Positions 1,021 through 56,700 are shown, numbered from the stretch's first letter. The stretch is 64,000 bases of DNA from Candidatus Omnitrophota bacterium (GCA_035292445.1 DATDQB010000003.1:9692-73691), one strand, 5' to 3'. Notes: generated by a model not told the origin, from the letters alone. Numbers and translations: made by a program.

Positions 1021-3657
1021 CTACGGCGCGGTGATGACCGTAACGGCCTTGCTAAAATCCAAATATGTCCTGGCGAGGCGTTGGATGTCTTCGGGCGTAA
1101 CGGCGCCGATCTTCTTTTCATAATTCTTATGCTCTTCATACCCCAGCCCGTAAAGCTCATCCAGGCCGGATGTGAAAGACAGCGCGTCGTTGGTTTCCAA
1201 GCCCGCCTTAAAATTCCCTTTCAAATACGTTTTGATGTCCTCCACCTCTTGAAGCGGGGCGAGCTCTTCCTGAAGCAGGCGGATCTCTTTTCGAATGATC
1301 TGTTCGATCGTTTCAACCGCTTCTTTCTCGGTCAACACATAAAAGGCGATCAATCCCGTGTCCAGACCCGGCATCTGGTAATCCCCCATCGTATACGCCT
1401 TGCCCAATTCTTCGCGGATGCTGTTGAAAAGCCTGCCGCTGAAGGAAGAGCCCATGTAGGTCCCCAGCACCTCCAGGCCGTAACGGTCCGGATGGTACAT
1501 ATCGACGCCGTGAAACCCGATCATCACCAACGCCTGCTCCTTGTTGAGCTGCACAGCGATGCGCTTGGGCTCGCGGATGAGTTCTTCTTCGTGCTTTTCA
1601 AAAACAACGTCTTTTCGTTTAAGGCTTCCCAGGAATGATCTCAGCTGGGCCAATACCTCCGGCGGATCGATATCGCCAAAGACACTGACCACCATATTGT
1701 TGGGGACGGCCCAATCGCTATAATAGGCCGCGATATCCTTTTGCTCGATAAGCACGAGCGTTTCGTTTGTCCCAAGACTATCCATACGATAGGGATGCTT
1801 TTCAAAAAGGTTCTTTCTCAGCGCAAAGCTTGTCAGGGGGAAAATGTTTTCATCCCGCTGGCGGATGGCTTTGAGCATGTCTTCTTTCTTCCTTTTGATC
1901 TCATCCGCAGGAAAAACCGGCTGTGTGATAATTTTGCCCAGCAGATCAAGGGCTGTCTTGGTGTCCTGCGACAACAGGCTCATGGAAAGGCCGAAACTGT
2001 TGTTGCCGGCGTAAGCGCTCAGATCGATCCCCAAGCCTTCGGTCATCTCTTCGATCTGTTGGGACGATAGCGACTTGGTCCCCTTGGTCCACACATGCGC
2101 CATCAATTGCGACACGCCGTTTATCGATGGCGGTTCTTTGATGAGCCCGCCTTTGAACATGACCCGCACCGATACCAACGGGAACGTCGCGTCTTTCCTT
2201 AACAAAATGCTGATGCCGTTATCCAGGGTGACTTTTTGTATCTCTTCCTGGGCAGCCTCCGGTTGCGGCAACGGCGTTTCATCTTGCTGGCCCGCCGGCT
2301 TCAACACGGTGACGCTCAAACGCTCGGGGCGAAGATAGGCGCGGGCCACCCGCTGGATGTCTTGTGTTTTGACCTTTTTGATTTCCTCAACGTATTTCTG
2401 CGAAAAAGTATAATCCCCCGCGAACGTTTCATCAACGGCCTGATGCCAGGCGACGCTGGAGGCCTTTTGGTTGCCCTTAATGTAATCGCTCAACACTTGC
2501 CGCTGCGCCTTCTCCAGTTCGGCCTTGGTGACGCCTTTGGATTTAAGAGTATCGACCTCCTGCCAAACGGTCGTTTCGATTTCCTTCACGTTCTTCGTTT
2601 CGCACAGGGCTTCGACTTCGAACAACCCCGGATCAACCGGCGTGTAGTTGCTGGCGTACACGGAATAGGCGATGCCTTTTTCTTTATACAATTTCTGATA
2701 AAGCCGCGAGCTTTCGCCCTGGCCCATAACAACCGCCAGCACATCCAGCGCGTACATATCTTCGTTCAAGAGGCTCACCCCCTGAAACGCCATGGACAGC
2801 CGCGCCAGGTCCGTTGGATACTCTTCCTCAAAACGCCGCGCGCTGATCTGCGGCGGCTCCTGCGGCACAATATCCAACACGAAAGGCTGCCGGGGAATGC
2901 TGTTTAATTTTTCGATGATCTTACCCTTGATCTCTTCGGTCTTGATATTTCCGGCAACGGAAAGAATGATATTATTGGGGGCGTAATGCTGTTTGTAATA
3001 CTGCCACAGCTCCTCGCGGGTGATCCGGCCGAAGAGATCCTCGTAACCGATAACAGGATGGCGGTAGGTGTGCTTGAGGTAACTGTTTTGAAAGGCGAGC
3101 CGGCCCAGCCACGAGTCCGGATTGTCCTTGTGCAGGCGCATCTCGGCAAAAATGACGTCCCTTTCCTTTTCCACTTCTTGAGGGTCGATCGGCGCGTTGA
3201 ATAACATACCGGTGAGCGTATCCAATGCCATTTCAAAATGGTCGTTGGGGACATTGACCGTGTAAATGGTGAAATCCTGGCCTGTGGAAGCGTTGATGTT
3301 TCCGCCTACGGCCTGGACTTTAGCAGCCAATGCGCCGCCGGGCTGGCCGTGGGCCCCCTGAAAGAGCATATGTTCGAGAAAATGAGAAATGCCGCTGCCG
3401 ACGAACTCCCCTTCCCTGGCAGAGCCGGTGCGCACGAGCCCGTACACGGAAACCATGGGGCTCGTTGGCATCTCGCTTATGAGGACGACCAACCCGTTGT
3501 CGAGAACGAACCGCTGCGAAGGGCCAGCGGCCCAAAGTGACGAGACAAAGGCGCCGCCTACAAAGATAAAAGCCAATAACGCGCTCGTTAAGAAGCGCTT
3601 ATTGCTTTTTCTTTTTATGATATTCTTCCAGAAGTTTTCTGATGTCGGTTTCGGCAT
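1021..3657 (-). CDS. secreted M16 (pitrilysin/insulinase) family zinc peptidase, tandem M16 units
   Basis: 878 aa. N-terminal signal/TM (LLAFIFVGGAFVSSLWAAG). Inverted zinc motif HFLEHMLFQG (HxxEH) with downstream E. Length is consistent with a duplicated M16 active/inactive half pair. Confidence 0.85.
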   Translation of the reverse strand: MPKPTSENFWKNIIKRKSNKRFLTSALLAFIFVGGAFVSSLWAAGPSQRFVLDNGLVVLISEMPTSPMVSVYGLVRTGSAREGEFVGSGISHFLEHMLFQGAHGQPGGALAAKVQAVGGNINASTGQDFTIYTVNVPNDHFEMALDTLTGMLFNAPIDPQEVEKERDVIFAEMRLHKDNPDSWLGRLAFQNSYLKHTYRHPVIGYEDLFGRITREELWQYYKQHYAPNNIILSVAGNIKTEEIKGKIIEKLNSIPRQPFVLDIVPQEPPQISARRFEEEYPTDLARLSMAFQGVSLLNEDMYALDVLAVVMGQGESSRLYQKLYKEKGIAYSVYASNYTPVDPGLFEVEALCETKNVKEIETTVWQEVDTLKSKGVTKAELEKAQRQVLSDYIKGNQKASSVAWHQAVDETFAGDYTFSQKYVEEIKKVKTQDIQRVARAYLRPERLSVTVLKPAGQQDETPLPQPEAAQEEIQKVTLDNGISILLRKDATFPLVSVRVMFKGGLIKEPPSINGVSQLMAHVWTKGTKSLSSQQIEEMTEGLGIDLSAYAGNNSFGLSMSLLSQDTKTALDLLGKIITQPVFPADEIKRKKEDMLKAIRQRDENIFPLTSFALRKNLFEKHPYRMDSLGTNETLVLIEQKDIAAYYSDWAVPNNMVVSVFGDIDPPEVLAQLRSFLGSLKRKDVVFEKHEEELIREPKRIAVQLNKEQALVMIGFHGVDMYHPDRYGLEVLGTYMGSSFSGRLFNSIREELGKAYTMGDYQMPGLDTGLIAFYVLTEKEAVETIEQIIRKEIRLLQEELAPLQEVEDIKTYLKGNFKAGLETNDALSFTSGLDELYGLGYEEHKNYEKKIGAVTPEDIQRLARTYLDFSKAVTVITAP

Positions 3658-4132: not shown

Positions 4133-4235
4133 GGTTTAACTTTTAATGGCGTTCTGCTTCGCCAAACAGCTTTCGCGTTTGGCTTCGCAGAACGTTCTTC
4201 GAAGCCCCGAGCGAAAGCATCGGGGCGAAGAAGAA

Positions 4236-4322
4236 CGGAGAGGGTGAGATTCGAACTCACGAGCCACTTGCGTAGCCACACGCCTTCCAAGCGTGCTCTT
4301 TCAACCGCTCAGACACCTCTCC
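4236..4322 (-). tRNA. tRNA-Ser (anticodon GGA)
   Basis: The reverse complement folds as a cloverleaf: GGAGAGGTGTCTGAGCGGTTGAAAGAGCACGCTTGGAAGGCGTGTGGCTACGCAAGTGGCTCGTGAGTTCGAATCTCACCCTCTCCG. Acceptor pair GGAGAGG/CCTCTCC, anticodon loop TTGGAAG, long variable arm, T-loop GTTCGAATC. No encoded CCA. Confidence 0.85.
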
Positions 4323-4593
4323 TTACAATATTTTTGAATTTAGAAAAAGGAGAGGTTGTCCCCGCTTCCTAAAATTATTTATTAGATAAACGGGGGCACC
4401 TCTCCCTATATATTTAATATTAATACTAAATGCCCCACCAGACCTAACACTATACCATAAATTCTTGTAACTGCAACCATTCTACACAGTTAACCATATT
4501 TTTAAATGCGCCCTCATTTGCCATTTTCCCGAATCTACGTTGTGAACAAATTTTTATTATTCTCACTTACACTTATCTTATTTATGAACTAAA

Positions 4594-22554: not shown

Positions 22555-24572
22555 TGAGCTGCTCCCGCCGTCTTCATTTCCCTTGCCTTGGAAAGGTTCT
22601 TGATGGCGCTCACATAATCCGGCTTGATCTGCAGGATCCGCACAAACATCGCTTCGGCCTTTTCATATTGCCCGTGTTTCCCATAGATCACGCCTAAAAC
22701 ATTCATCGCGTCGAGATTATTCGGGTCCTGCGATAAAACGTTCTCCAGATAAACCTTGGCCAACTCCTCATTGCCCTCCTCATAAAGAAGAAGCCCCAGG
22801 TTATTGTTGGCCTCAATATAATCCGGCTCAAGAAGAAGCGCCTGCTCATAATATTCCCGCGCCTTCGGCCGGTCGTTCAAGCGGAAATGAAGAAACCCTA
22901 AATTGTTCATCGCCTCGATGTATTGCGGGTCGAGGGAGAGCGCCTGCTCATAATATTTTTTAGCCTCCTCAAGATCGCCTTCCTCCAAAAGGACATTGGC
23001 CAGGTTGTTCAGGGCCTCTTTATTGGTGGCCCTCGCTTCAATGGCCTGCCTGTACAACTCTTTGGCCTCCTGCGCCTTTCCGTCATAGTACATCGCCAAG
23101 CCCTGGTTATTCAACGTCTCGCTGTCAAAAACGCTTTTATCCATTGTTTGTTGCATAAGGCTCATGGCCTCCTGGTCGCGGCCCATCTCCTGCGTAACGC
23201 GAACAAGATTGGAAAGGGCTTCGGGATTCGCCGCCTTCATCGCCAGCGCTTTCTTGAAATAAAGCTCGGCTTCCTGCCAATTTCCTTTTTCGGCGTATAT
23301 CGCGCCCAAATTATTGTACGCCTGGACAAAACTGGGGTTAAGCCGGATGATGCGCTGATAAAAAGCGACCGGCTCGCCCCAAACGAGGCTCTGAGCGGCC
23401 GTCAGAACACCGTATATAACGGCCAAGACAACCACCAGTGCGCCGGCCATATGTTTCAAAGGCGCCGATATACCGACGATCATGAGAGAAACTCCCAGGT
23501 AAAAACCGATGGATGCCGTATAAAGCCAGTGCTCGGCCATGTACGCGTTCATGGGGTATATGTTCGCAACCGGTAAAAGCGCGGCCAGAAACCAGGCGCA
23601 GGCAAAAAAAACCGTGCGGCGGCCGCGCCAATATATTGCGCCTAAACAAAGCATCCCGAGGATAACCAACCCTGCCCAGGCCCTAAGGTCCGCAAACGTA
23701 AAGACCATGAGCCCGTAGCCCATGTGCAGATCCTGCGGCCACAGTAGAAGCCTCGCATATTCGAATAACGCGACAAAAGATCCTGGCAAACGATCCATGA
23801 GCGTTGTTTTGACGGCCCCTGAAACCTCGTCGCCGAAACGCCCGGCAGCGTAGACGATAGCCAATAATCCGACGGGAATAAGCCCCTCCCAGGAAGACCT
23901 CTTTTCATGGGCAAGATGGATAAGGACCAGTAACGCAGGCGCGATCACCGCGTATTCTTTGGATAAAAGCGCGGCCGCAACAAAAACGCAGGCGCCGGCC
24001 AACAAACGTTTCTTGCCCCGCACCAGGTATCTTTCATAGCATAGGCACGAGAGAAGTATGAACAGCGCGACCAATAGATCCGCCCGGGAGGAAATGTAAA
24101 CAACGCTTTCCGTCTGGATGGGATGAATAAGGAAAAATAACGCCGTCAAAAAAGAAACGGCCCGTTGGGCAAACAGCGCATCGATAAGGAAGAATAATGC
24201 TATCCCCGTTGCCGCATGAAGAAGGATGTTGCTTAAATGAAAACCAAAAGGATTAAGGCCCCACAACCGCGCGTCAAACTTGTAGCTTAACATCTGCAGC
24301 GGCCGGTAAAAGCTCTCTTCGCTCCCGCCCAACACATTGCGCTGGAAAATTGGCGCCAGATTGCCCGGCGACTTGATGAGCTCATTGTTGACGATGAGCC
24401 CGTGATCGTCCCAGATAAAGGGGCTGAAAAGCGCTTTGGCGTAAATTAATAAAGTTGCCCCCACCAATAGGGAACACGCCAAGGCCTTGGAAGAAAGGAA
24501 CCGGAAAGGCAAGTTAGGTTGGATGGGTTTCATAAGAATGTCGGATCCTGCTTCGCTAAATTGCTTTCGCAT
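22551..24572 (-). CDS. TMTC-like GT-C membrane protein with C-terminal TPR array
   Basis: 673 aa. FIWDDHGLIVNNELIKSP...FHLSNILLHAATGIALFFL N-terminal domain, TM helices and TPRs. ATGA start/stop overlap with the upstream paralog points to an operon. Confidence 0.75.
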   Translation of the reverse strand: MRKQFSEAGSDILMKPIQPNLPFRFLSSKALACSLLVGATLLIYAKALFSPFIWDDHGLIVNNELIKSPGNLAPIFQRNVLGGSEESFYRPLQMLSYKFDARLWGLNPFGFHLSNILLHAATGIALFFLIDALFAQRAVSFLTALFFLIHPIQTESVVYISSRADLLVALFILLSCLCYERYLVRGKKRLLAGACVFVAAALLSKEYAVIAPALLVLIHLAHEKRSSWEGLIPVGLLAIVYAAGRFGDEVSGAVKTTLMDRLPGSFVALFEYARLLLWPQDLHMGYGLMVFTFADLRAWAGLVILGMLCLGAIYWRGRRTVFFACAWFLAALLPVANIYPMNAYMAEHWLYTASIGFYLGVSLMIVGISAPLKHMAGALVVVLAVIYGVLTAAQSLVWGEPVAFYQRIIRLNPSFVQAYNNLGAIYAEKGNWQEAELYFKKALAMKAANPEALSNLVRVTQEMGRDQEAMSLMQQTMDKSVFDSETLNNQGLAMYYDGKAQEAKELYRQAIEARATNKEALNNLANVLLEEGDLEEAKKYYEQALSLDPQYIEAMNNLGFLHFRLNDRPKAREYYEQALLLEPDYIEANNNLGLLLYEEGNEELAKVYLENVLSQDPNNLDAMNVLGVIYGKHGQYEKAEAMFVRILQIKPDYVSAIKNLSKAREMKTAGAAQ

Positions 24573-24590
24573 TTAGCTACGCAGGACAAC

Positions 24591-24679
24591 AGGCTTCGTT
24601 ATCTAAAATTTCGCCAGAACTACGCCTGACTTTCGGCGTAGCCAGGCGTAGTTCAACGCGAAAGCTGTTGAACGAAGCC
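24591..24679. terminator. nested perfect inverted repeats downstream of tRNA-Ser(CGA)
   Basis: gaactacgcctg-N14-caggcgtagttc (12-bp arms) is nested inside ggcttcgtt...aacgaagcc. This is the likely tRNA terminator/processing structure. Confidence 0.4.
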
Positions 24680-24767
24680 TGGCGGAGAGGCTGGGATTTG
24701 AACCCAGGAGGCCTTTCGACCTAACGCTTTTCGAGAGCGTCGCTTTCAACCACTCAGCCACCTCTCC
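24680..24767 (-). tRNA. tRNA-Ser (anticodon CGA), CCA encoded
   Basis: Reverse complement: GGAGAGGTGGCTGAGTGGTTGAAAGCGACGCTCTCGAAAAGCGTTAGGTCGAAAGGCCTCCTGGGTTCAAATCCCAGCCTCTCCGCCA. Anticodon loop CTCGAAA. Long variable arm. Confidence 0.85.
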
Positions 24768-24836
24768 AGAAATTTTCTTCGAAAATTTTTGGATCTCGAG
24801 CCCCGCCAAAGGCGGGGCGAGAAATCTCAAACTTTG
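24768..24836. promoter_or_regulatory. conserved twin-hairpin element (AT-rich palindrome + GC hairpin GGATCTCGAGCCCCGCC-AAAG-GCGGGGCGAG) upstream of tRNA-Ser; also the terminator of the upstream gene
   Basis: A near-identical 41-nt copy lies at 27908-27949 upstream of tRNA-Ser(TGA). The AT palindrome differs in sequence but keeps its pairing (aaattttc/gaaaattt versus ataaatttg/caaatttat). Confidence 0.55.
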
Positions 24837-25588
24837 GTTCTTACCCACCCCGTATAGGCCTTCAGTTGCTCGATGTCATCGGGGCGGAAGATCTCATAAA
24901 TTTTAACCAAAGGAACGTGGCTGTCCAGCAGTTTCTTGATGAAGGCGTTCCTAAGCCGCTCGTCTTTGAAATCACTCCATTTAAGCAGCTTGAAACGCTC
25001 ATCCAGCATGGCCTCACCGATCAGGTATCTCAAAACCAGCTGCTCTTTGCTGTTGGCGACCCGTTGGTATTCCCGCAGCTCTTTTTCCGCCATCACCGCC
25101 GGAGCCTTGAGGGCGAGCGCTTTGACATGAAGCAGCGGATTGTCGTTCAGGTAAGACTTCTTGATGGCAAAATCCAACACGCACTGCAGAAGGAACAGTT
25201 GAAAATTAACCTCCGGTGGACCCTCCCCTTTTTCTCTTAAGCAATCGCGGTATTGTTCGGCCACGTTGGGGGTTATACGAGAGAGTTTTGTTTCGCGGGG
25301 CAGCTTTTCCTTTAAGAATTTCCCGAAGCGTTCGATGGCCTTTTTAAAATGCTCGAATGTGGCCGGCGGATGATTCCTTTGGGCTTCTTGCAGGAACTGG
25401 TTGAAAAAGATGCCGATATCCTGGTCAGGGATGACGTTGCTCATCGCCCCTTGCGGCAGGGAGCTTTCAATTTCCAAGAGGAGTTTTTGGGCGCGTTCTT
25501 TATCCTTGCCGGCGTATTTCTCAAACAGCAAGCCGTTGCCGTAAAACTGGACAAAATATTCATCGCCTCGTTTAATTATTTTTGCCAT
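24827..25588 (-). CDS. hypothetical protein with a segment resembling a tyrosine-recombinase N-terminal core-binding (SAM-like) domain; no catalytic domain
   Basis: ITPNVAEQYRDCLREKGEGPPEVNFQLFLLQCVLDFAIKKSYLNDNPLL resembles an integrase N-terminal domain. The R..HxxR..Y catalytic residues are not found. 253 aa. Confidence 0.4.
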   Translation of the reverse strand: MAKIIKRGDEYFVQFYGNGLLFEKYAGKDKERAQKLLLEIESSLPQGAMSNVIPDQDIGIFFNQFLQEAQRNHPPATFEHFKKAIERFGKFLKEKLPRETKLSRITPNVAEQYRDCLREKGEGPPEVNFQLFLLQCVLDFAIKKSYLNDNPLLHVKALALKAPAVMAEKELREYQRVANSKEQLVLRYLIGEAMLDERFKLLKWSDFKDERLRNAFIKKLLDSHVPLVKIYEIFRPDDIEQLKAYTGWVRTKV

Positions 25589-25623
25589 TTTTCATCCAAT
25601 GAATCAAGAGGTAGCGCGGATAT

Positions 25624-27105
25624 TTAGGAGAGAGGGACTTTTTGTCCTTCAAGAACTTCGATAAAGGCTTCCACCAAATCCTGGTCAAGCTCGTTTCTCA
25701 TGCTGCGCAGGATATCGCACGCCGCGTCTTTGGTAAAACGGTTGCGGTACGCGCGGTCCGTTGTCAGCGCGTCAAAGATATCGGCGATCTCAAGGATGCG
25801 CACCAAGGGTGAGATCTCATCGCCTTTTAAGCTGTCCGGATAACCGCTCCCATCGAGCTTTTCATGATGGTGGCGGATCAGGTCACACAGGTTATGTAAC
25901 GAACGTACCGGCTTGATGATGCTTTCGCCGATCTCGGTATGGCGTTTCATCAGATCCTTTTCCTGTTCGGTCAACTTGCCTTCTTTATTCAGCACCTCAT
26001 CGGGGATGCCGATCTTCCCGATGTCATGAAGGCGGGCAGCATCGCGCAGCGATTTGATATCCTCTTCGTCCAAGCCCAGCTTCTCTCCCATCATGACGCA
26101 GTATTTGGCCACGCGGTCCAGATGCCCGCGGGAATATTTGTCTTTGGCGTCAATGGCCAAGGCGAGCGCCGTGATGGTCTCAAAATAAGTCTTCTCGATG
26201 TCTTTATTGAGCTGCGCGTTCTGGATGGCGATCGCCGTCTGGCTGGCCAGGTTAAAGAGGAGGTTTTTTTCTTCTTCGTCAAACCGGCCGTGGTCTTTAC
26301 GGCCGCTCACCAAAATCACGCCGAGCACCTCGTCTTTGGTCACCATGGGCGCGCATATCAATGGCGGTTCAAACAGATGCGGCGCCTCATCGGCCTCCGA
26401 CAAATCGGAAATAGCCTGCTCCATGATGAGCGGCTGCTTGATGGAGATGACGGTATGAATCGTCGTGCCCTTTTCCAGCTTAAGGCGGATATCCTCATTG
26501 GGCTTTAATTTGACGCCGTAGACCGTCTTGACGTACAGCTCGTTTTTATCCTTGAGCATCAGCACTCCGACGTTACCGTTTAAGGCGTCGGTGACGGTCT
26601 CCACGATCAGATCAAGGAACGAATCGATGTTCTCCAGCGACGTCATGCCCTGGCCGACCTTGCTCAATACGGAATGGAGCGTCCTTTTGGCGAGCTCAAG
26701 GCTGCGGACGTTCTCATCCATGCGCTTGGTGATGATCTTGAACGCCTCGGCGAGGACATTGAGTTCGTTTTTTTCTTTCGTCAGCTCCTCGATCTCGCTG
26801 GGGCTTAAAGACTCCTCCATCAGCTCCCGGTTGGTCAGGATCAGATTGACCAGCTTGACCAATGCGGAGCGCATCGTAAAATACCCAAGGATGACGCCCA
26901 GGACCACGAAGATCATCGTTAAATTGAAATTCTCCTCAGAGATGGTGATCTGGCCGTAATCGCGCAGCTGCACATAGAAATAATACAGGACGACAGTGGG
27001 GATAAACGACATGAGCAAAAACAGGATGGAAAACTTCCTTAAGAGGGATGCGTTCTCAATGGACCCAACGACACGGCGTTTATGGATTTTTTTCTTTTTC
27101 TTCAT
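25624..27105 (-). CDS. membrane-anchored GAF + HD-GYP domain c-di-GMP phosphodiesterase
   Basis: HD motif RLHDIGKIGIP. HHEKLDGSGYP (HD-GYP signature). Upstream GAF-like region. N-terminal TM. Confidence 0.85.
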   Translation of the reverse strand: MKKKKKIHKRRVVGSIENASLLRKFSILFLLMSFIPTVVLYYFYVQLRDYGQITISEENFNLTMIFVVLGVILGYFTMRSALVKLVNLILTNRELMEESLSPSEIEELTKEKNELNVLAEAFKIITKRMDENVRSLELAKRTLHSVLSKVGQGMTSLENIDSFLDLIVETVTDALNGNVGVLMLKDKNELYVKTVYGVKLKPNEDIRLKLEKGTTIHTVISIKQPLIMEQAISDLSEADEAPHLFEPPLICAPMVTKDEVLGVILVSGRKDHGRFDEEEKNLLFNLASQTAIAIQNAQLNKDIEKTYFETITALALAIDAKDKYSRGHLDRVAKYCVMMGEKLGLDEEDIKSLRDAARLHDIGKIGIPDEVLNKEGKLTEQEKDLMKRHTEIGESIIKPVRSLHNLCDLIRHHHEKLDGSGYPDSLKGDEISPLVRILEIADIFDALTTDRAYRNRFTKDAACDILRSMRNELDQDLVEAFIEVLEGQKVPLS

Positions 27106-27193
27106 GAAAGTTTCCTGTGCGTGGACACTGCCTTAAATTATATAACCGTTGCCTGAAACAAGCTAATCATAATCTGAAAATTTTTCCCGCTCG

Positions 27194-27790
27194 TCACTTC
27201 TTCGTCAAGTTTCCGGCAACATAACCCGCCCTTGCCGTCCAGATTTCCCTGAGTTTCTGTGCCGCCAGGACCAAGGCTGGGTCCCATTGAAAGACAAAAC
27301 GAGGATCATGATTCGCTTTGTAAAACACGCCCAAAACCGTCAACTTGAACTCTTCAGACAAAAATTGCCAAAAAACCTCTTCCAATTGGGGGGATTTTCC
27401 GGGGCTCTTGACATATTCATCCGTATATTCCAGATGATAAAAGGTCGCCCCAAGGCCGCGGACATGCCCCTGGCTTTCCTCGATGCGCTCCAGCAGACTG
27501 GCCGGCGTGCGGTTTGCCTCCAAAACCGCGATGGCTTCATCGATCGCTTGATTTTGTTGCTGCCCCCTCAACGCCTGGAAATAAAACTGGAACTCCGGGT
27601 CCTCCCTCATCGTATCGACCATGCGGCGGATATCCGCGGAGGTGTAATCGGCCGGGGATCGGTACCTTTGGATGGCTTCCAAAAGAGGGTCTTTCTTCTT
27701 AAACGGCTGCGCCATCAAAAACAGCCCCGCGATGACAACGAACGTGACGGTCGCCGCGATGATGATGATTTTGTTCTTGAGCTCGATCAT
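27194..27790 (-). CDS. hypothetical N-terminally membrane-anchored protein
   Basis: 198 aa. Single N-terminal TM (IIIIAATVTFVVIAGLFLMA). No recognised motif. The start lies 10 nt downstream of the tRNA-Ser(TGA) 3' end. Confidence 0.5.
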   Translation of the reverse strand: MIELKNKIIIIAATVTFVVIAGLFLMAQPFKKKDPLLEAIQRYRSPADYTSADIRRMVDTMREDPEFQFYFQALRGQQQNQAIDEAIAVLEANRTPASLLERIEESQGHVRGLGATFYHLEYTDEYVKSPGKSPQLEEVFWQFLSEEFKLTVLGVFYKANHDPRFVFQWDPALVLAAQKLREIWTARAGYVAGNLTKK

Positions 27791-27799
27791 ACAAAATAA

Positions 27800-27884
27800 C
27801 GGAGGAGTAGGGATTCGAACCCCAGATGCCTCGCGGCATAACGGTTTTCAAGACCGCCGCATTCAACCACTCTGCCACTCCTCC
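27800..27884 (-). tRNA. tRNA-Ser (anticodon TGA)
   Basis: Reverse complement: GGAGGAGTGGCAGAGTGGTTGAATGCGGCGGTCTTGAAAACCGTTATGCCGCGAGGCATCTGGGGTTCGAATCCCTACTCCTCCG. Anticodon loop CTTGAAA. Long variable arm. No encoded CCA. Confidence 0.85.
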
Positions 27885-27952
27885 ATAAATTTGCGGAGCA
27901 AATTTATGGATCTCGAGCCCCGCCAAAAGCGGGGCGAGAGATCTCAAACATG
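27885..27952. promoter_or_regulatory. second copy of the twin-hairpin element (ATAAATTTG-CGGAG-CAAATTTAT palindrome + GGATCTCGAGCCCCGCC-AAAA-GCGGGGCGAG hairpin)
   Basis: 40/42 nt identical to 24791-24833. The GC hairpin overlaps the TGA stop of the GIY-YIG gene, just as copy 1 overlaps the stop of the 24827 gene. Confidence 0.55.
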
Positions 27953-28195
27953 CTCCATTAAAGCTAATTTCTTAAATCGCGAGTATTTCTTAATCTGTCG
28001 CTCTCTTTTTCTAGCATCAGTATAACTTCCGCTAACTTCTACATACTTGAGCTGTACCGGCCTACGAAACTTCGTATACCGACAAGCCCTACCTTGATTA
28101 TGTAACTCCACACGTTTATTAACATCCTGAGCGATTCCAATATACAAATCTTTCGTACGGCATTCAATGATGTAAACCGACCATTGATTATCCAT
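27944..28195 (-). CDS. GIY-YIG nuclease family protein (small, UPF0213/YhbQ-like)
   Basis: 83 aa. WSVYIIECRTKDLYIGIAQDVNKRVELHNQG carries the GIY...YIG...R...N motifs. Confidence 0.75.
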   Translation of the reverse strand: MDNQWSVYIIECRTKDLYIGIAQDVNKRVELHNQGRACRYTKFRRPVQLKYVEVSGSYTDARKRERQIKKYSRFKKLALMEHV

Positions 28196-28265
28196 AGCTT
28201 TTTAAGAGTTCTCGTCGCTTCGCTAAGGCTCGCTCCTCGAACTCATTTTTCGCTTCGCGAAAAAT

Positions 28266-28285
28266 GACCGCTCAGCCACCTCTCC
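28266..28285 (-). pseudogene. tRNA-Ser 5' fragment (about 20 nt, GGAGAGGTGGCTGAGCGGTC) followed by an 11-bp perfect hairpin
   Basis: 19/20 match to the 5' ends of the tRNA-Ser genes at 24767 and 4322. There is no T-arm or acceptor 3' half. The adjacent hairpin is tcatttttcgcg-aag-cgaaaaatga. Confidence 0.5.
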
Positions 28286-49931: not shown

Positions 49932-50279
49932 TTAAAAAATAATACCCAAATGAATCGCCAGCGCTTTCTCCACGAATTTTATTTTATTTTCAGGTAAGAC
50001 GGCCAATTGTTTTAAGAGCCTGGCCTTGTCAATCGTTCTGATCTGCTGGCACTTGATCTTTGAATCTTTCACGAGGCCGACTTCAGATTTGCCTAACGCC
50101 ACTTCATACGGCTGGACCCTTTTTCCCGGATCCGTGATCGGCAACACGGTAACCGTTAAAGCGAACTCGTTGCTAATGTCGTTAGAAATGATGCAGGCAG
50201 GACGTTTTTTCTTGATTTCAGCGCCTATGGCCGGTTCAAAATCGACAAGCCATATCTGGCCGCGTTTGGGATAGCTCAT
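49932..50279 (-). CDS. type II toxin, PemK/MazF family endoribonuclease
   Basis: RGQIWLVDFEPAIGAEIKKKRPACIIS...VLPIT matches the MazF/PemK fold signature. 115 aa. Confidence 0.85.
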   Translation of the reverse strand: MSYPKRGQIWLVDFEPAIGAEIKKKRPACIISNDISNEFALTVTVLPITDPGKRVQPYEVALGKSEVGLVKDSKIKCQQIRTIDKARLLKQLAVLPENKIKFVEKALAIHLGIIF

Positions 50280-50509
50280 TATTCAATCCCATCCCCGACC
50301 GTGCAGTCCCACTCCGCTGCCACCTCTTTATCCTCTTCAGCGGAAGCCTTATATCCTTCGATCAATTCGGCCTTTAACTTCTTCATTTCGTCATTACGCA
50401 TCTTTTCCCTCACCGCTTCCGCGATGAAACGGCTTTTATTGGGCACCTTCTGCAATTGTTTGACAACCTCTTCCGGCATAGTGATATTGAGTCTAACCAT
50501 GGGCTCCAC
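50279..50509 (-). CDS. ribbon-helix-helix (CopG/MazE-like) antitoxin
   Basis: 76 aa. N-terminal RLNITMPEEVVKQLQK beta-strand/helix. 1-nt overlap with the toxin gene. Confidence 0.7.
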   Translation of the reverse strand: MEPMVRLNITMPEEVVKQLQKVPNKSRFIAEAVREKMRNDEMKKLKAELIEGYKASAEEDKEVAAEWDCTVGDGIE

Positions 50510-50521
50510 CTCCTGTATGAA

Positions 50522-50546
50522 ATATACACTATTTAGTGTGTATAAT
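50522..50546. promoter_or_regulatory. palindromic operator candidate upstream of the TA operon
   Basis: TATACACTA-TT-TAGTGTGTATA inverted repeat, 13 nt upstream of the antitoxin start. Confidence 0.4.
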
Positions 50547-51057
50547 CAATACAGAAGTTAAATTCGCCAGACGTGTGGTGAATTTCTTACCTCCCGCAGC
50601 CGCATCTTCCGCCATATTGGCGCCTAAGCTGCCTGATTTGCTTCGGCACGCTTTGGTAATGCCGGATCACGATCCTGTTGGACACGACCACCGCCAACTG
50701 ATGATCATCTCCCGCAGTTGAAGAATTTCTTTGGCTAAGGCCCATCAAACTTAGCTGATAATTCCGGTTATTGATGTCAAGGAACGTTTGAGCTTCGGCG
50801 TTTACAGTCATAGTGATCATTAACAGTATTAAAACAAGAACCGGTCTGATCTCATATCAACTCCTTTCAATCTTTCTGACCATCGCAACCTGCTCCCCCA
50901 TGCAGTCCTATCTCTATCAAAATGTGGCTGGCGTATTTCTTTTTTCTCCTCTATAAAGAATCTTTTGATATGAGCATAAGACAATACATCCATATAAAAA
51001 ATGAAATACCCAAAATTCGTAGGACCGGGTACCCATTTCATCAATAGCCACAATAAC

Positions 51058-51561
51058 TTACGAGTAAAATGCCTCATAATATGAATCTAAAAATAAAAGA
51101 CCTGCTACGGATTCTTCATTTCCCCGATACACTCTTGCGCTGCTATAACGATATTCATCAGCTCTTTGGACGATCTTTGCCTTAACAGGATTTTCATGGA
51201 CATATTCTAGACACTCAAAGAAATACTTCTCCCGTTCGATTACCCGACTTTTAAAACGGCTCTGCCATAAATGCCCTGCATAATTGTATTTCTTTCGATA
51301 GCGAATAGAATACGCTAATGCTAAAGCATGTATAATGCGTGATATGCTGTGTTTCTGAACCGTCTCCAATATCATATGGTAATGATTATCCATTAAACAT
51401 ATGGCATAAACTTTAAATAAAAACCTCGCTCGATAATGATCGAGCAGACTGAGAAAGAGCTCTTTATCTTCATCATCTTTAAAAACCTCCGAACGATTGT
51501 TTCCCCGGTTATACACGTGATAAATAGCGCTTACATAAAACTCTCTGCGTAATCTTCCCAT
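51058..51561 (-). mobile_element. HUH Y1 transposase, REP-associated (RayT)/IS200-IS605 TnpA-like, copy A
   Basis: 167 aa. YHVYNRGNNRSEVF...CLMDNHYHMILET (HuH)...WQSRFKS. Confidence 0.75.
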
Positions 51562-51570
51562 GCCGTATCA

Positions 51571-51626
51571 CTTCCCTCACAATTCATTCTAATCCTTATA
51601 CTTATTGGTACCCGGTCTTGCATATC
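51571..51626. repeat. 56-bp direct repeat copy 1 upstream of RayT-A
   Basis: cttccctcacaattcattctaatccttatacttattggtacccggtcttgcatatc. 55/56 identical to 52419-52474. The motif gaccgggtacc also occurs inverted at 51024-51034, downstream of the gene. Confidence 0.75.
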
Positions 51627-51686
51627 CTCATTGTATCGTCATCATAAAAAGAAAAAGAAGGGGACAGGACACTCCCAGGGGACACC

Positions 51687-52295
51687 TTATCTCCTTTTTC
51701 TTCTTTCAAAAAACTGGAACTTGAAAAATGCTGATCCAATGATACTACCGCTCTCAAAATCCTCCTGAATAAGATCATCTAAAATTCCCTTTCGTCTAAT
51801 AGACTCTATATCCCCATATTCATCCACCAATTCATCGGAAATACCTTGATGACAAACGCGGTGCGAACTATATGGCCAATCTTCATTTTTCTTAACCATC
51901 TCTGCCTTCACAGGATTTGCCTCAATATATTGACCACACGCTAATAAATACTCTTCGTTCTCAATTAATAAACTTTTATACCGCTCACGCCATATTGGCC
52001 CACTCAATCGATATTTTGTATGAAATATGCTTGTATAACGACTTTTCACTCTTGCTAAACTTTTTGAAAATTCGACAACGTTCGGTATTTCGACAGCCAA
52101 ATGAAAATGTGTTTGCATTAGGCAGTAATGAAAGATCCGAAATCCACTTTTTCGCTTTTCAATGAGCAATTCCCTTTTAAATGCCTCAAAATCTTCTCTA
52201 TCTTTAAAGACTTTTAACTTCCGTATCGACCGTGATATCACGTGAGAATAACATCCGCCATACAACAACTCCGTTCTTGCCACCCTCGCGCACAT
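51687..52295 (-). mobile_element. HUH Y1 transposase RayT/IS200-like, copy B (diverged paralog)
   Basis: 202 aa. YSHVISRSIRKLKVF...CLMQTHFHLAVE (HuH)...WRERYKS. Confidence 0.7.
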
Positions 52296-52418
52296 CGCAT
52301 TGTTCCTTTCGCATAACCTGTCCCTCTAGAGTGTCCTGTCCCCTTCCCTTCTTCCCTTTCCCTTCTATTCCCTACATCTGCCCTGTCCACTGCCGGTGGA
52401 CTGTCCCCTTCCCCTTCA

Positions 52419-52474
52419 CTTCCCTCACAATTCATTCTAATCCTTATACTTATTGGTACCCGGTCTTGTATATC
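52419..52474. repeat. 56-bp direct repeat copy 2 upstream of RayT-B
   Basis: See copy 1. An inverted GGGGACAGGACAC motif pair also occurs (51661-51675 and 52326-52345). Confidence 0.75.
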
Positions 52475-52481
52475 TTTCCCT

Positions 52482-52778
52482 TTATATCAACTTAAGAATA
52501 ATAAAAGAAAAATATGTCAAAAGAATTGCAAAAATAAAACATGAAAGCATTGTGGACTTGACCCATCTAAATACAACATAGGCTAACAATTGGTACTGTA
52601 TGAAATATAAAAAACTCACTGAGTAAACATGATTTAAATCAATCAATGTGAGAGGCATACCTAAAAAACCTAAGCTGAATAGAACTCCCTCCCCTCCATT
52701 TCCCCCATAGAGTAAAATTATCAAAATACCAAATATAAGACTTCCTGCTGAAATAATCGAGGCAATAATTTTATTCAT
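52482..52778 (-). CDS. small hydrophobic protein (possible orphan immunity protein)
   Basis: 98 aa, 3 TM. Lies in an approx. 30% GC island downstream of the RHS toxin. Confidence 0.4.
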   Translation of the reverse strand: MNKIIASIISAGSLIFGILIILLYGGNGGEGVLFSLGFLGMPLTLIDLNHVYSVSFLYFIQYQLLAYVVFRWVKSTMLSCFIFAILLTYFSFIILKLI

Positions 52779-52806
52779 ATTTCTTTGTTATTTCCTCTAG
52801 TTGTAC

Positions 52807-53205
52807 TTAATATTTTTTAATGCGTGTCAATAAAACACATGACAAAAGAATTAATCCTACGGCTAATATTACGGGCAACTTAAATTCTTCTTTTGGAAAA
52901 TGCGATATATTTCTTTCATAATACAGATAAAGCCCCCCTATAAAAAAACTTATTCCAATTATTAGAGATAACCCACAAACAGTTTGCGCCGTAGATATTT
53001 TGCGCCTAATTAAGAAGTATATAAAATAAAGAATGATGGATATTTCTAAAATAAAACCCAATATATTAATTCCTGGTAGAGGAAAAATAAACGCCAGAAG
53101 ACAGGAATTCATAATGATTAAAATAACCATCGAAATGATTACAAGATAATTTTCTTTATTAGTGGGCACTCTATTATCCTCTTTAAGGAATTGAACTCGC
53201 TGCAA
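52807..53205 (-). CDS. small hydrophobic protein (possible orphan immunity protein)
   Basis: 132 aa, 4 TM. AT-rich. Confidence 0.4.
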   Translation of the reverse strand: MQRVQFLKEDNRVPTNKENYLVIISMVILIIMNSCLLAFIFPLPGINILGFILEISIILYFIYFLIRRKISTAQTVCGLSLIIGISFFIGGLYLYYERNISHFPKEEFKLPVILAVGLILLSCVLLTRIKKY

Positions 53206-53749
53206 TATAGATATTAATAAAATCCTGATTCTTACCTAATTCCATGTCCGGTTCTAAAACAGTAATCCGTAACTTAATATTATCTAAATACTTGCCTTGA
53301 TAAGGTATCTCAAACGTATCAAGTACTATCCATTTATAATAATCCGTATCATACCCATCTTCAAAATAACTACCCCAAGCTTTAAAAGCGGAAATTGTTT
53401 TCTCGCTCAAAATTTGAGCGTCAACCAAAAATTCAAGCTTAAATTTTCCATTGAACTTATGTTTGGTAGATAATACCTTTTTTTCAAATTCTAAACCGAA
53501 ATCATACAAACCCTTATACTTTGCATTAAGATTGAGCGTCTTGCTAAAACCCTTCTCAAGAAAATTCAACTTTTCTTTTACAATTGGATCATAGAAACCA
53601 TCTGGCGGATTAATTTTATTTATCATATACTTTACACCTCTAATATTATCGGATAGATAATTGTTATAAACAAAAACAACTAGAATTCCGAAAAAGACTA
53701 ACAAAAATAATATGATAAAAAAAAACAATTTACTTTTTCGAATGTGCAT
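53183..53749 (-). CDS. candidate cognate immunity protein for the RHS C-terminal toxin
   Basis: 188 aa. N-terminal TM. Overlaps the RHS stop by 20 bp. AT-rich codon usage unlike the core genome. Confidence 0.45.
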   Translation of the reverse strand: MHIRKSKLFFFIILFLLVFFGILVVFVYNNYLSDNIRGVKYMINKINPPDGFYDPIVKEKLNFLEKGFSKTLNLNAKYKGLYDFGLEFEKKVLSTKHKFNGKFKLEFLVDAQILSEKTISAFKAWGSYFEDGYDTDYYKWIVLDTFEIPYQGKYLDNIKLRITVLEPDMELGKNQDFINIYIAASSIP

Positions 53750-56700
53750 TTTCTTTCCCCATTTTATTTATAACTTTTTTATATTCATTCCTTAACGCCT
53801 CGGCGAAATCTTGACAATTATGGTGGTTTAAACCGCATAATTCGTATTTATTTGGTTTCCATATTGGCTCACTTTTAACCATATCAAAAGCCTCTCTCAT
53901 TGTATCGTCATCATAATGTTTACTTTCATATACATACCCAAGCCCAGTAGGATCTTCGGAAAAAATCCCAACTGTTCCATTGTAGCCTATATTTTGGCCA
54001 GAACCATCTTCAAAAAATCCATGTTCATGGAAAGGTTCGTGATTAATTCTATCTAAAATTTCAGTAGGCTTTCCGGGTTTAAACCATTTAGTAGAAGCGA
54101 GAGGCCTTCTACCAAATACAAACAGTCCAAAAGGATCACTCCAATTTATTGGACTATTCTCAACATATATATATAAATTCATTGAATCTAAGTAACCTAA
54201 CGGATCAGGCGTAAGCCAGCGGCCTACCTGCGGGTCATAATACCTAGCTCCAAAATAATACAATCCAGCCCTGGAATCAAACTCTTTTGTGCTAAAAAGA
54301 TATCGGTTAGTATCCCCGCTGGTTTGGGGATTTATCAGATTACCGAAGGCATCATAACTGTAGTTATTCGCGGCCGTTCCCGTGAGAGCGGCGACAGAGC
54401 CTAAATCGTCGTAATGATAATACTGGACAACAGGCGTGTTATTGCTCGTATGGCTTTGCGCAATCAGCCCTGCGATGCCGCCGGGAAAACCTATCGCTCT
54501 CGTATATGTCTTGAAACTGCCTGAATCATCCCTTTCCACCAGAATATTTGAACCGTCGTATAAATAGTCCGTGGCCAGTGCATTGCCTGTTGCCGCGTTA
54601 TCATTCAGCACAACCTGCGTTCGCAGCCCTTCCCCATTATAGATCAAACGATCCGTCTGTGTACCGGAAATATCGGGAATATTCTCATAGGTTAACCGGT
54701 TGAGCCTATTCTCAAAATCATAAGCATAGCTTGTTTGTCTCGGCGATGGATCGCTTGGGGCCGAAGAAACAATTTTATTTATTCGATTGCCGTTATTGTC
54801 GTAGGTATAAACCGCCTGCACAGGGAACACGGATGTTCCCACGCTGATCGTCCCATTCCATCCTGTCAACCGGTTGGCAGCATCATTGGAATAATTATTG
54901 ACCAAAGACACAGCGAGGGCCGGATTAGCGGTTTTTCCATAACCGGCATTGGTCATGCTCGTCAAAACTGAAGACGGCATGTTCAGATAGTCTGCGCTCC
55001 AGAAGCCTCCCAGCGTTGTATCTTTTCTCCAAGTTAAACGGTTGCCCACAGGATCATAAGTGTAAATGTTGCTATAGATGGTTGATGAGCCAGTTTGCTT
55101 CGTTTCATTTAACAATTGATTCTGCGTATCGTAGGTATAAATTGTCCATGAGCCGTCGGCAAATATCTTTTGCTTGACCATTCCCGCAATGTCATAGACA
55201 TTAGTGTAGGAGGAAATTACTGTCGCTCCATTTTGGATTACGGCTGACAAAACCCTGTTTAACGAGTCGTAGGTATAATTCTCCACAACGCCGTTAGGGC
55301 TTGTCATCGAAAGGAGATTTGAGTTGGCATCGTATTCATAGGACGTTATTCCATTTTGATCCTGTACCGAAGCCAAACGATTTAAGGCGTCATATGTATT
55401 GGTTACTGTGCGGCCGTTTTGATCAAGAGTGGTCAAACGGTTACCTTCACCGTCGTACACATAATTAATGGTATTGTTAGTTCCAGGACTTTTTTTAGTT
55501 AATAATCGATCTAATGCATCATAAGTGTAAGTCGTCACTCCCGTGGAATCGGTCATCGACGTCATGCGGCCCAAAGCATCGTAGACATTGGTGACCTGCG
55601 AATTGTCGGGATAAGTAGTTTTTGTTAAACGATTTAAAGCATCATAGGTATAGCTCGTCGTTTCGCCATTGGCATCTTTTCCGGTTAAAACATTTCCAAC
55701 CGGATCATAAGTAAAGGTTGTTAACAAGTTTAACGCGTTGGTTTGGGTCAAAACCCTGCCATTAGGATCATACGTATACGTTGTCGCATGCTCATTGGCA
55801 TCGGTAAGGGTCCGCAGGCGGCCTTCGGTATCATAATTAAATTGAGTTATCCCATCTTTGGGATCCTCAATTTGCGAAAGCCGCTCGAAAGCATCATAGG
55901 TTTTTATTAAGACATTTCCCCTTTGATCGGTCACGCTGATCTGATTTCCAAAAGCATCATACGCATAGGAAACCCTTGAGCCATCGGCAAAGGTCGTTTT
56001 AAGAAGCCTGTTTAACTTATCGTGTTCATAAGAGGTGGTGTTATTTAAAGCATCCGTTTCTGAGACGATATTGTCATCAACACCATAGCTGAAAGGGAAA
56101 AAACTAACGGTAACTGTAATCGGCGAAGACGTTGTCGATAAACCACTAACATCGGTCGCCACAGCCGTCAAATTGTGAGTTCCAGCCGGCACATTAATCC
56201 AAGAATACGTAAACGCTTCAAAAGTGCTGGTCACCCTTCCCAATAATGTGGAGCCGTTGTAAAAATCAACATAGCTGATCGTTCCATAATCTTCTCTAGC
56301 GATCGCTGTAATATTAACAGATCCTGTTGTAAAGCCGCTTTGATTGGAAGGGCTTTCAACGGAAACTTCCGGTAAACCATGAATCATAACCACAACGGGG
56401 CTGGATGTTGCCGAAGTGCCAAAAGCATCCGTGGCCACAGCGGTTAAGGAATAGATACCCACTGGAGCATTTGTGATCGTATACGTATATGGAGCTGTAG
56501 TACTTGTCCCTAATAGTGTTGACCCATTATAGAAGGATACGCTGGTGATAGTCCCGTTTATTTCACTTGCACTTGCCGTAATTGTTAAGTCTGCCCCTAC
56601 CGTAAAGCTGCTGTTACTGGCAGGACTTGTTATTTCAACCATCGGTAGACCGGCAACGGTCAATGAGGCCGCTGCGCTGGTTACGCTCCCTGCCGAATTG

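Follow-up and report, generated by a model that had tools for sequence, protein, structure and literature searches.

A stretch of 64,000 nucleotides (nt) from a Candidatus Omnitrophota bacterium (GCA_035292445.1, DATDQB010000003.1:9692-73691), referred to here in its full length as the window, carries on its minus strand two copies of a twin-hairpin module, each directly in front of an intact serine tRNA (tRNA-Ser) gene. The module consists of an extended hairpin, R1, and an AT-rich palindrome, R2. At one of the two sites, it is the right end of a cassette (27886-28285, minus strand) and not a stand-alone terminator-promoter unit. The only gene of this cassette encodes a small GIY-YIG nuclease. 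The architecture is tied to tRNA-Ser genes with four anticodons at several unrelated chromosomal positions, its hairpins covary, decayed, tandem and nested copies occur, and genomes differ in its presence or absence. The cassette seems to be a selfish element that inserts at tRNA genes and leaves them intact. We consider it reasonably probable that it is a homing-type GIY-YIG cassette specific for tRNA-Ser genes, with hairpins that act in a co-transcribed messenger RNA (mRNA) and pre-tRNA. Sequence comparison suggests the target of the nuclease, mobility by homing, co-transcription, and roles that the hairpins would have as RNA.

The module and its cassette

The core of R1, GAGATYTCTCGCCCCGCYTTTGGCGGGGCTCGAGATCCA (39 nt), has exactly two matches in the window, at 24790-24828 and 27907-27945, both on the minus strand, and no match appeared in any of 100 dinucleotide-preserving shuffles. 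With a shared GTTT prefix, the element extends to 43 nt, and 41 of the 43 positions are the same in both copies (A and B in Table 1). The original prediction had described a 41-42-nt element with about 95% identity, which stands, but its coordinates for copy B were off by one. The identity of the two tRNAs, put there at about 65%, was measured at 73%. The R2 palindromes are 64% identical, and the 60-nt flanks on either side reach only the background level of about 46%. Nevertheless, pairing is kept in R2 despite the different sequence, as had been noticed: copy A has 10 contiguous Watson-Crick pairs (reached by 0 of 2000 shuffles) and copy B has 8 (P = 0.0015). The palindrome ends 0-2 nt before position +1 of the tRNA. 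The predicted fold of R1 comprises a 6-bp outer stem, a 2x2 UC/UC internal loop and an 8-bp G+C inner stem. For R1 and R2 together, the predicted fold reaches -32.1 kcal/mol in copy A (z = -6.3); copy B has z = -4.3. Rfam 15, searched at gathering and E-value thresholds, returned the tRNA model only, and sub-threshold matches to sX4 and to plastid models overlap the tRNAs themselves. The third tRNA-Ser of the window, with anticodon GGA (4236-4322), has no R1-R2 copy. Two further readings of R1, a CRISPR-like repeat and a tRNA-like minihelix with a terminal CCA, were considered and dropped, as no feature supports them.

The cassette, about 400 bp long, starts with an 18-nt copy of a tRNA-Ser 5' end, followed by the hairpins L1 and L2, the 83-aa GIY-YIG gene, R1, R2 and the intact tRNA-Ser(TGA). 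The first 15 nt of the tRNA copy are an exact match to the 5' end of the other tRNA, tRNA-Ser(CGA) (24753-24767), and differ from the adjoining tRNA-Ser(TGA) at 3 positions. The 83-aa protein matches the Pfam profile PF01541 with E = 5.6e-16 over 76 of its 78 positions. Residues Y8, Y18, R28, N33 and E65 are invariant or nearly so among 14 homologues, which is consistent with a catalytic set. The closest solved structures are 1zg2 (E = 2.9e-9) and 1ywl (E = 6.8e-6), both from the UPF0213 family. The nuclease gene is the sole open reading frame (ORF) of the cassette; there is no DDE, HUH, serine or tyrosine transposase in it, and tblastn found no second GIY-YIG gene or remnant in the 64-kb window.

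Both ORFs upstream of the modules stop at a TGA within GTTTGAGAT, in line with the claim that the element supplies the stop of both genes. The upstream genes had also been called unrelated. The GIY-YIG gene is no bystander but the cassette's own gene: its ORF runs into or ends at R1 in all eight homologue loci described below, and the C-terminal KDLS(S) residues of the proteins are encoded by the 5' arm of R1. As for the GTT-TGA stop inside GTTTGAGAT, it is a point change of this R1 subtype and specific to the lineage, because the closest homologue, P0002, reads on at this place (...MKQVSDLSPQAQ, with Ser at the window's stop). In most GIY-YIG homologues, the stop is a TGA within the inner stem of R1.

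Distribution, pairing and transcription signals

Further copies were sought in genome and metagenome collections, a check that the original prediction had proposed, and the module was found in nine other Omnitrophota loci. The exact G+C-type hairpin gave four matches in 596 Gb of reference genomes, and the only real one is L010, in an Omnitrophica metagenome-assembled genome; those in L009, L011 and L012 are chance matches in G+C-rich DNA. Metagenome contigs gave three matches, namely the window population, L010 again and L013, a chance match within an actinobacterial coding region. Viral contigs scanned with three patterns gave no match. The GIY-YIG protein has 36 homologues at 60-81% identity, and all named ones belong to Omnitrophota. 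The comparison set comprised 14 distinct R1-R2 modules: the two of the window and 12 from the nine other loci, i.e., L010 and eight GIY-YIG homologue loci. In the suggested test of whether the element always lies 5' of tRNAs, all 14 modules were placed directly 5' of a tRNA-Ser 5' end.

In the eight homologue loci, the GIY-YIG gene lies directly 5' of a tRNA-Ser gene (anticodons CGA, GCT, GGA and TGA) and its ORF ends in or at an R1-type hairpin, GAYCTC-TC-inner stem-loop-TC-GAGRTCC, after which an AT palindrome touches the tRNA +1. L010 has a solo R1, a different AT palindrome and tRNA-Ser(GGA), without a GIY-YIG gene. A tRNA-Ser 5' fragment is found left of the GIY-YIG gene in six of the eight loci (L016, L018, L022, L023, L026 and L027). 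It measures 15 nt in L016, L018 (twice), L022, L023 and the second, ORF-less copy of L024, and 31-33 nt in L026 and L027. In L016, L018 (twice), L022, L023 and L024, the fragment leads into an L1-type hairpin, TCATT...AATGA, whose inner stem varies. Outside the window, L2 reads CCTCGAGGAGCnnnGCGACGAGAGGYC, and in five of seven cassettes the motif GAGAGG precedes the ATG by 8 nt. The first gene of L024 and the gene of L029 have no left end.

Several copies are decayed or combined. Both ends are retained in the ORF-less copies of L018 (2150-2280) and L024 (about 1830-1960). L022 has a solo R1-R2 (2366-2430) upstream of a full cassette, and in L016 the cassette is followed by a truncated tRNA copy and then by the intact tRNA. 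Tandem or nested copies thus occur in L022, L024 and L016. The complete tRNA-Ser(CGA) of L016 has no R1-R2 module. Among the loci retrieved, which include no strictly orthologous pair of an empty and a filled site, tRNA-Ser genes with and without a cassette, as well as ORF-less and nested copies, are all present. The identities of the GIY-YIG proteins do not track the type of locus or anticodon. For instance, the Ser-TGA copy of L027 is 83-84% identical to Ser-CGA copies, and the Ser-GGA copy of L024 is closer to these than to other Ser-GGA copies.

A difference between genomes was found at copy B. The loci L030 and L032 of related genomes preserve the order of an HD-GYP gene, the gene for a 253-aa protein and a TPR/PMT gene, with 3-13 nt between the last two and no tRNA there. 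The window seems to have gained about 300 nt at this site (~24545-24832: R1, R2, tRNA-Ser(CGA) and two long 3' hairpins) because both relatives lack the segment. The left edge of the segment, GTTTGA, takes the place of the last codon and stop of the 253-aa gene; the GIY-YIG ORF of copy A also ends in GTT TGA. Copy B has the appearance of a right end on its own, descended from a cassette similar to that of copy A. Another idea, that copy B is a cassette with swapped cargo, was rejected, as no tRNA 5' fragment and no L1 or L2 was found upstream of the 253-aa gene.

The covariation analysis that had been suggested indicates that both hairpins are kept by compensatory change. In the alignment of the 14 R1 copies, 92.9% of the cells are paired, and 7 of the 13 pairs have changes on both sides. 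The covariation score is 0.394 compared with 0.165 for shuffles, and 0 of 500 shuffles reached the observed value; sliding the 3' partner as a control lowered pairing to 15-40% and the score to 0.097 or less. Sequence is conserved in the outer stem, whose variants run from UA through UG to CG, and in the internal loop. The inner stems are entirely unlike between loci (GCCCCGC, GTCAC, ATCACGC, GTCCCGTC, GTTGC and GACTCGTAA). For R2, 13 of the 14 copies have an unbroken run of 7-12 pairs anchored at either end (P <= 0.006 for each, judged by shuffling). A covariance model trained on these modules gave high scores (57-89 bits) for the 14 copies only and revealed no additional copy in the 64-kb window or the retrieved loci. 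The true stems hold five G.U pairs in the tRNA sense versus a single A.C, the latter in a degenerate copy; therefore, selection on the sense-strand RNA is mildly favoured.

The two ends of the cassette may also be related. Reverse-complemented, the R1 arms give those of L2, GAYCTCGAG...GACGAGAGRTCT, and the internal loop of L2 is GA/GA where R1 has UC/UC. The R1 model scores L2 hairpins weakly (11-16 bits) and on the opposite strand only. Comparison of the left end with the reverse-complemented right end gave z values of 1.5-6.7, and the inverted score is above the direct one in six of eight cassettes. These alignments make an inverted-repeat relation between L2 and R1 suggestive, not proven.

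Inside the modules scanned (window, L010, L018 and L026), no sigma-70-like or terminator-like consensus was found, and no promoter-like site occurs between cassette and tRNA in the loci scanned. Promoter-like sequences are located further upstream. L010 has TTGACG-17-TATAAT (11/12) about 30-40 nt before R1, and its neighbouring gene is divergent. In L026, TTGACC-17-TACACT stands ahead of the tRNA fragment, the same sequence being visible in L016, and TTGACC-17-TAAACT stands ahead of the array in L018. This placement, upstream of R1 in L010 and of the whole array elsewhere, would fit a single transcript spanning cassette and tRNA. It also favours one of the two roles that had been offered for the element, i.e., the module is most likely part of the pre-tRNA-Ser leader.

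Interpretation of the cassette

Signs of movement come from three sides: the left fragment in the window matches tRNA-Ser(CGA) and not the adjoining TGA gene, protein identities cross locus types, and L030 and L032 are without the tRNA-Ser(CGA) segment. Hallmarks of selfish elements are seen as well, such as tRNA 5' fragments at the left end, ORF-less derivatives, tandem and nested copies, and a disrupted tRNA-Ser beside an intact one in L024. In the homing scheme that we propose, the nuclease would cut a cassette-free tRNA-Ser gene near its 5' part. Repair of the break would draw on a filled locus, the tRNA 5' fragment providing homology on the left and the tRNA body on the right, so that the cassette would be copied while a complete tRNA is kept. 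As the tRNA would come out complete and with a leader that can be processed, insertion would be near neutral. Cassette and tRNA would be co-transcribed from the promoter upstream of the array. L2, which holds the likely ribosome-binding site, may sequester that site and restrain translation. Cleavage by RNase P at the tRNA +1 would free the tRNA, and the nuclease mRNA would then end in R1-R2 without a single-stranded tail. A hairpin mRNA end of this kind resists 3' exonucleases, and R1-R2 would guard the nuclease mRNA in the same manner.

The system is most similar to the free-standing GIY-YIG genes of T-even phages, above all segB of phage T4, which are small selfish intergenic genes tied to tRNA genes. 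SegB is a free-standing GIY-YIG homing endonuclease located in a tRNA gene cluster, and it recognizes the conserved T-psi-C motif of tRNA genes (PMC2330249). Such a conserved motif makes many tRNA genes potential targets, and segB spreads by break repair with co-conversion of the flanks. Hairpins sequestering the ribosome-binding site regulate several homing endonuclease genes, among them segB, mobE and I-TevI (PMC2988022), and L2 appears to act like the translation-restraining hairpin of segB. In contrast to the phage enzyme, the cassette resides in a bacterial chromosome and encodes only a catalytic domain of ~85 aa from the Slx1/UPF0213 branch, without a DNA-binding domain. It also has inverted twin-hairpin ends, a tRNA 5' copy, tRNA-Ser specificity and abutment on +1, and it is known from sequence alone. 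The cassette is not a strict member of the free-standing GIY-YIG homing family because it lacks the DNA-binding domain and its cleavage activity is only presumed. As for the UPF0213/prokaryotic Slx1-like family, it is described as inherited mostly vertically, with a predicted role in DNA repair (PMC1564403). The cassette protein shares the minimal single-domain size of the UPF0213 proteins (1zg2, 1ywl), its best match among solved structures. However, the description of this family mentions no association with tRNA-Ser or with a hairpin-bounded cassette (PMC1564403), in contrast to the cassette gene.

No description of GIY-YIG cassettes at bacterial tRNA-Ser genes was found in the literature or Rfam. 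If the homing reading is correct, a minimal nuclease gene would have a previously undescribed means of maintaining itself in the chromosomes of bacteria. It would colonise the genes of all serine-tRNA isoacceptors in a phylum and rebuild the tRNA, with tRNA transcription and RNase P processing exploited for its expression. The large and functionally obscure stand-alone Slx1/UPF0213 GIY-YIG family would gain a concrete, testable role, and the tRNA 5' fragments, broken tRNA-Ser copies and relocated tRNA-Ser genes of Omnitrophota would be accounted for. A compact cassette with a defined target would be directly testable as a site-specific nuclease system. R1-R2 is, moreover, an RNA motif supported by covariation and absent from Rfam.

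Several points weigh against homing. The evidence is comparative throughout. The 83-aa protein is a catalytic domain only, without an I-TevI/Seg-type DNA-binding domain for site specificity. The immunity of filled sites is unaccounted for because the intact downstream tRNA keeps any target within the tRNA. The left fragment of 15-18 nt is short for a homology arm, and its length varies among copies (15, 18, 31 and 33 nt). The solo R1-R2 modules (copy B, L010 and L022 2366-2430) are not derivable by simple direct-repeat recombination, and they may point to R1-R2 as an independent leader element of tRNA-Ser, either from the outset or secondarily. In the window, R1 is 95% identical and R2 only 64%, which one recent transfer of the complete module would leave unexplained. 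L2 of the window has no GAGAGG motif. Lastly, the TadA-tRNA-Ser(GGA) locus has the cassette in all four genomes seen, which fits long vertical inheritance too.

The solo modules also lead to an explanation that we regard as unlikely but worth serious thought, in which R1-R2 is a native functional leader of pre-tRNA-Ser, e.g., a processing or regulatory structure, and GIY-YIG genes settle alongside it or hitch-hike. Modules without a GIY-YIG gene, including that of L010 with its own near-consensus promoter, the strict specificity for tRNA-Ser with +1 abutted in 14 of 14 cases, and the covariation and G.U pairs in the tRNA sense, which suit an RNA role, all agree with it. A native leader is, however, hard to reconcile with the absence of the module at some tRNA-Ser genes (GGA at 4236-4322 in the window, the complete CGA gene in L016) and with the extreme rarity of the exact G+C-type R1 in 596 Gb of genomes and the metagenome set. 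Moreover, every GIY-YIG locus has its nuclease ORF joined physically to R1, an inverted R1-like L2 stands at the other end of the gene, and ORF-less copies retain both ends.

These paired ends are central to another explanation, which we hold to be quite unlikely. The cassette would be a DNA transposon with L1-L2 and R1-R2 as terminal inverted repeats, extruded as hairpins or cruciforms and cut by the Slx1-like GIY-YIG protein, and the tRNA 5' duplication would be a target-site duplication. The layout is suitable: a direct repeat (tRNA nt 1-15), inverted twin hairpins, the ORF, inverted twin hairpins and a direct repeat. The ORF-less derivatives with both ends resemble miniature inverted-repeat transposable elements (MITEs), and a tRNA-Ser unit stands at a new chromosomal site in the window relative to L030 and L032. 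In eukaryotes, members of the Slx1-like branch, to which the protein belongs, are structure-specific endonucleases (PMC1564403). The similarity of the inverted repeats is nonetheless modest (z 1.5-6.7, 9-12 nt per arm) and arises in part because both hairpins are palindromic. Duplications of 15, 18, 31 and 33 nt are unlike the product of a fixed staggered cut, the left fragment of the window differs from the adjoining tRNA at 3 of the first 15 positions, and the G.U pattern favours RNA over duplex DNA. We know of no GIY-YIG transposase in prokaryotes. A new class of prokaryotic DNA transposon, with GIY-YIG as transposase and insertion at the tRNA-Ser 5' end, which leaves the host gene functional and can relocate tRNA-Ser, is correspondingly doubtful.

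The cassette was also compared with known mobile elements. Classical transposons with terminal inverted repeats differ from it in that it has no known transposase class and no target duplication of fixed length. Correia elements of Neisseria are MITE-like, have inverted ends, are co-transcribed with their neighbours, influence transcript processing and occur as non-autonomous copies. Like Correia-type MITEs, the cassette and its derivatives are short units bounded by inverted repeats that fold as RNA hairpins, and non-autonomous copies exist. They differ in their very low copy number, their strict position before tRNA-Ser and an autonomous form with a GIY-YIG protein and not a DDE transposase. 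Islands and prophages with tyrosine integrases duplicate the 3' part of a tRNA and lie downstream of it. As in these islands, the tRNA is rebuilt from a partial copy in the element, and a tRNA fragment is left at the far end; in contrast, the cassette duplicates the 5' part, lies upstream and has no integrase.

The original prediction had also proposed a terminator-promoter cassette, in which R1 terminates the upstream gene and the AT-rich R2 is the promoter of the tRNA. This we now regard as very unlikely. In line with the proposal, R1 forms a strong G+C hairpin where an ORF ends, and R2 is AT-rich with a T-run at its end. However, R1 is followed by CCA and an A-run, without a U-tract, the T-run of R2 follows an AT-rich stem with too few G-C pairs, and no module contains a terminator-like or sigma-70-like site. 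There is no space for a -10 element and a start site because R2 ends 0-2 nt before the tRNA +1. In L010, the promoter precedes R1, and there is nothing to terminate because the neighbouring gene is divergent. That the two copies resemble each other by chance or through a recent segmental duplication in this genome, for which the presence of only two copies in 64 kb might speak, is refuted by the 0 of 100 shuffles, the flanks at 46%, the tRNAs at 73% and the same module in other Omnitrophota, so that the view of a copied and probably mobile unit is upheld.

Adjoining genes and further observations

Table 1 Positions in the window of the features of cassette A and the copy B locus
Feature	Position	Strand	Description
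tRNA-Ser 5' end copy, 18 nt	28268..28285	-	Left boundary of cassette A; GGAGAGGTGGCTGAGCGG
Hairpin L1	28243..28267	-	Predicted fold TCATTTTTCGC-GAA-GCGAAAAATGA
Hairpin L2	28206..28244	-	Predicted fold GAGTTC-GA-...-GA-GAACTC, 10 nt before the GIY-YIG start codon; possible inverted, degenerate counterpart of R1
Stand-alone GIY-YIG nuclease gene, 83 aa	27944..28195	-	Slx1/UPF0213-like; Pfam GIY-YIG PF01541
R1 copy A	27907..27949	-	Extended hairpin holding the TGA stop of the GIY-YIG gene
R2 copy A	27886..27906	-	AT-rich palindrome ATAAATTTG-CTCCG-CAAATTTAT, ends at tRNA position -1
tRNA-Ser(TGA), intact	27799..27885	-	Directly after cassette A; ARAGORN; Rfam tRNA model 58.6 bits
R1 copy B, solo	24790..24832	-	Without GIY-YIG gene, L1, L2 and tRNA fragment; gives the 253-aa gene its last codon and stop
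R2 copy B	24768..24789	-	AT-rich palindrome AAATTTTC-GAA-GAAAATTT
tRNA-Ser(CGA), intact	24680..24767	-	ARAGORN; Rfam tRNA model 61.1 bits
Structured region 3' of tRNA-Ser(CGA)	24545..24682	-	Two long hairpins; predicted fold -74.6 kcal/mol, z = -9.0

The 253-aa protein upstream of copy B (24827-25588, minus strand) has a single Pfam match, Phage_int_SAM_5 (residues 61-152), a SAM-like N-terminal integrase domain. It scores far below the cut-offs of XerC/D models and has no recognisable catalytic domain. Its orthologues have the same length and 44-49% identity, and their C-termini align, with a last residue differing from that of the window. The family is conserved (252-263 aa) and always follows an HD-GYP/GAF gene. 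A reading of the gene as an integrase truncated by the element was rejected in view of orthologues with the same length and C-terminus, syntenic where the tRNA is missing. With a SAM-like N-terminal domain only and a position kept in relatives without the tRNA, the protein is not an island-type integrase.

The second of the two hairpins 3' of tRNA-Ser(CGA) (24545-24587, minus strand) has a homologue 3' of tRNA-Ser(GGA) (4151-4193, minus strand), with compensatory changes in both stems. The shared sequence is GUYCUGCG(A/U)AGC-YAAAYGCGAAAGC..UUURG-CGAAGCAGRAY, and it folds into a 7-bp outer stem, a 3x3 internal loop, an inner stem and a GAAA loop. Another long hairpin precedes each copy of this 3' module (24590-24682, minus strand, for Ser-CGA), with z = -9.0 and -6.6. 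GCGAAGC is an unusually stable mini-hairpin sequence in DNA. This motif, or GCGAAAGC, recurs in hairpin loops or inner stems at 28206-28267, 24545-24587 and 4151-4193 of the window (minus strand) and in R2 of L022 and L026.

At tRNA-Ser genes, further small GIY-YIG genes were seen, which share about 30% identity with the window type. One of them, in L024 (2091-2348), splits a tRNA-Ser copy in the T arm, and 8 nt later an intact tRNA-Ser(GGA) follows. Two more lie 3' of tRNA-Ser in L023 (about 2950-3192) and L029 (about 2000-2240). In this phylum, several GIY-YIG lineages therefore seem to have tRNA-Ser genes as their hot spots. In L027 (about 1395-1470), the tRNA 5' fragment on the left side of the GIY-YIG gene is interrupted behind its nt 13 by a structured insert of ~76 nt, TCCCAATTC...GACAAGGAC, which suggests another small element aimed at the D-loop region of tRNA-Ser.

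A TadA-like deaminase gene stands beside tRNA-Arg(ACG) and the tRNA-Ser/GIY-YIG locus in L018, L022, L023, L027 and L028 (e.g., L022 1683-2337); tRNA-Arg(ACG) is the usual substrate of TadA. In L018, a seryl-tRNA synthetase gene precedes the tRNA-Ser array.

Upstream of tRNA-Ser(GGA) in the window (4349-4405, minus strand), a 9-nt copy of the tRNA 5' end, GGAGAGGTG, opens a long hairpin, GGAGAGGTGCCCCCG...CGGGGACAACCTCTCC, with TTTTT behind it. This structure may represent a terminator; alternatively, it may be what is left of a decayed tRNA copy or of a different type of cassette. Finally, positions 50001-54000 have a G+C content of 0.33-0.42 and a GC skew of -0.22 to -0.27, compared with about 0.50 G+C elsewhere in the window, and may be a foreign or otherwise atypical segment.

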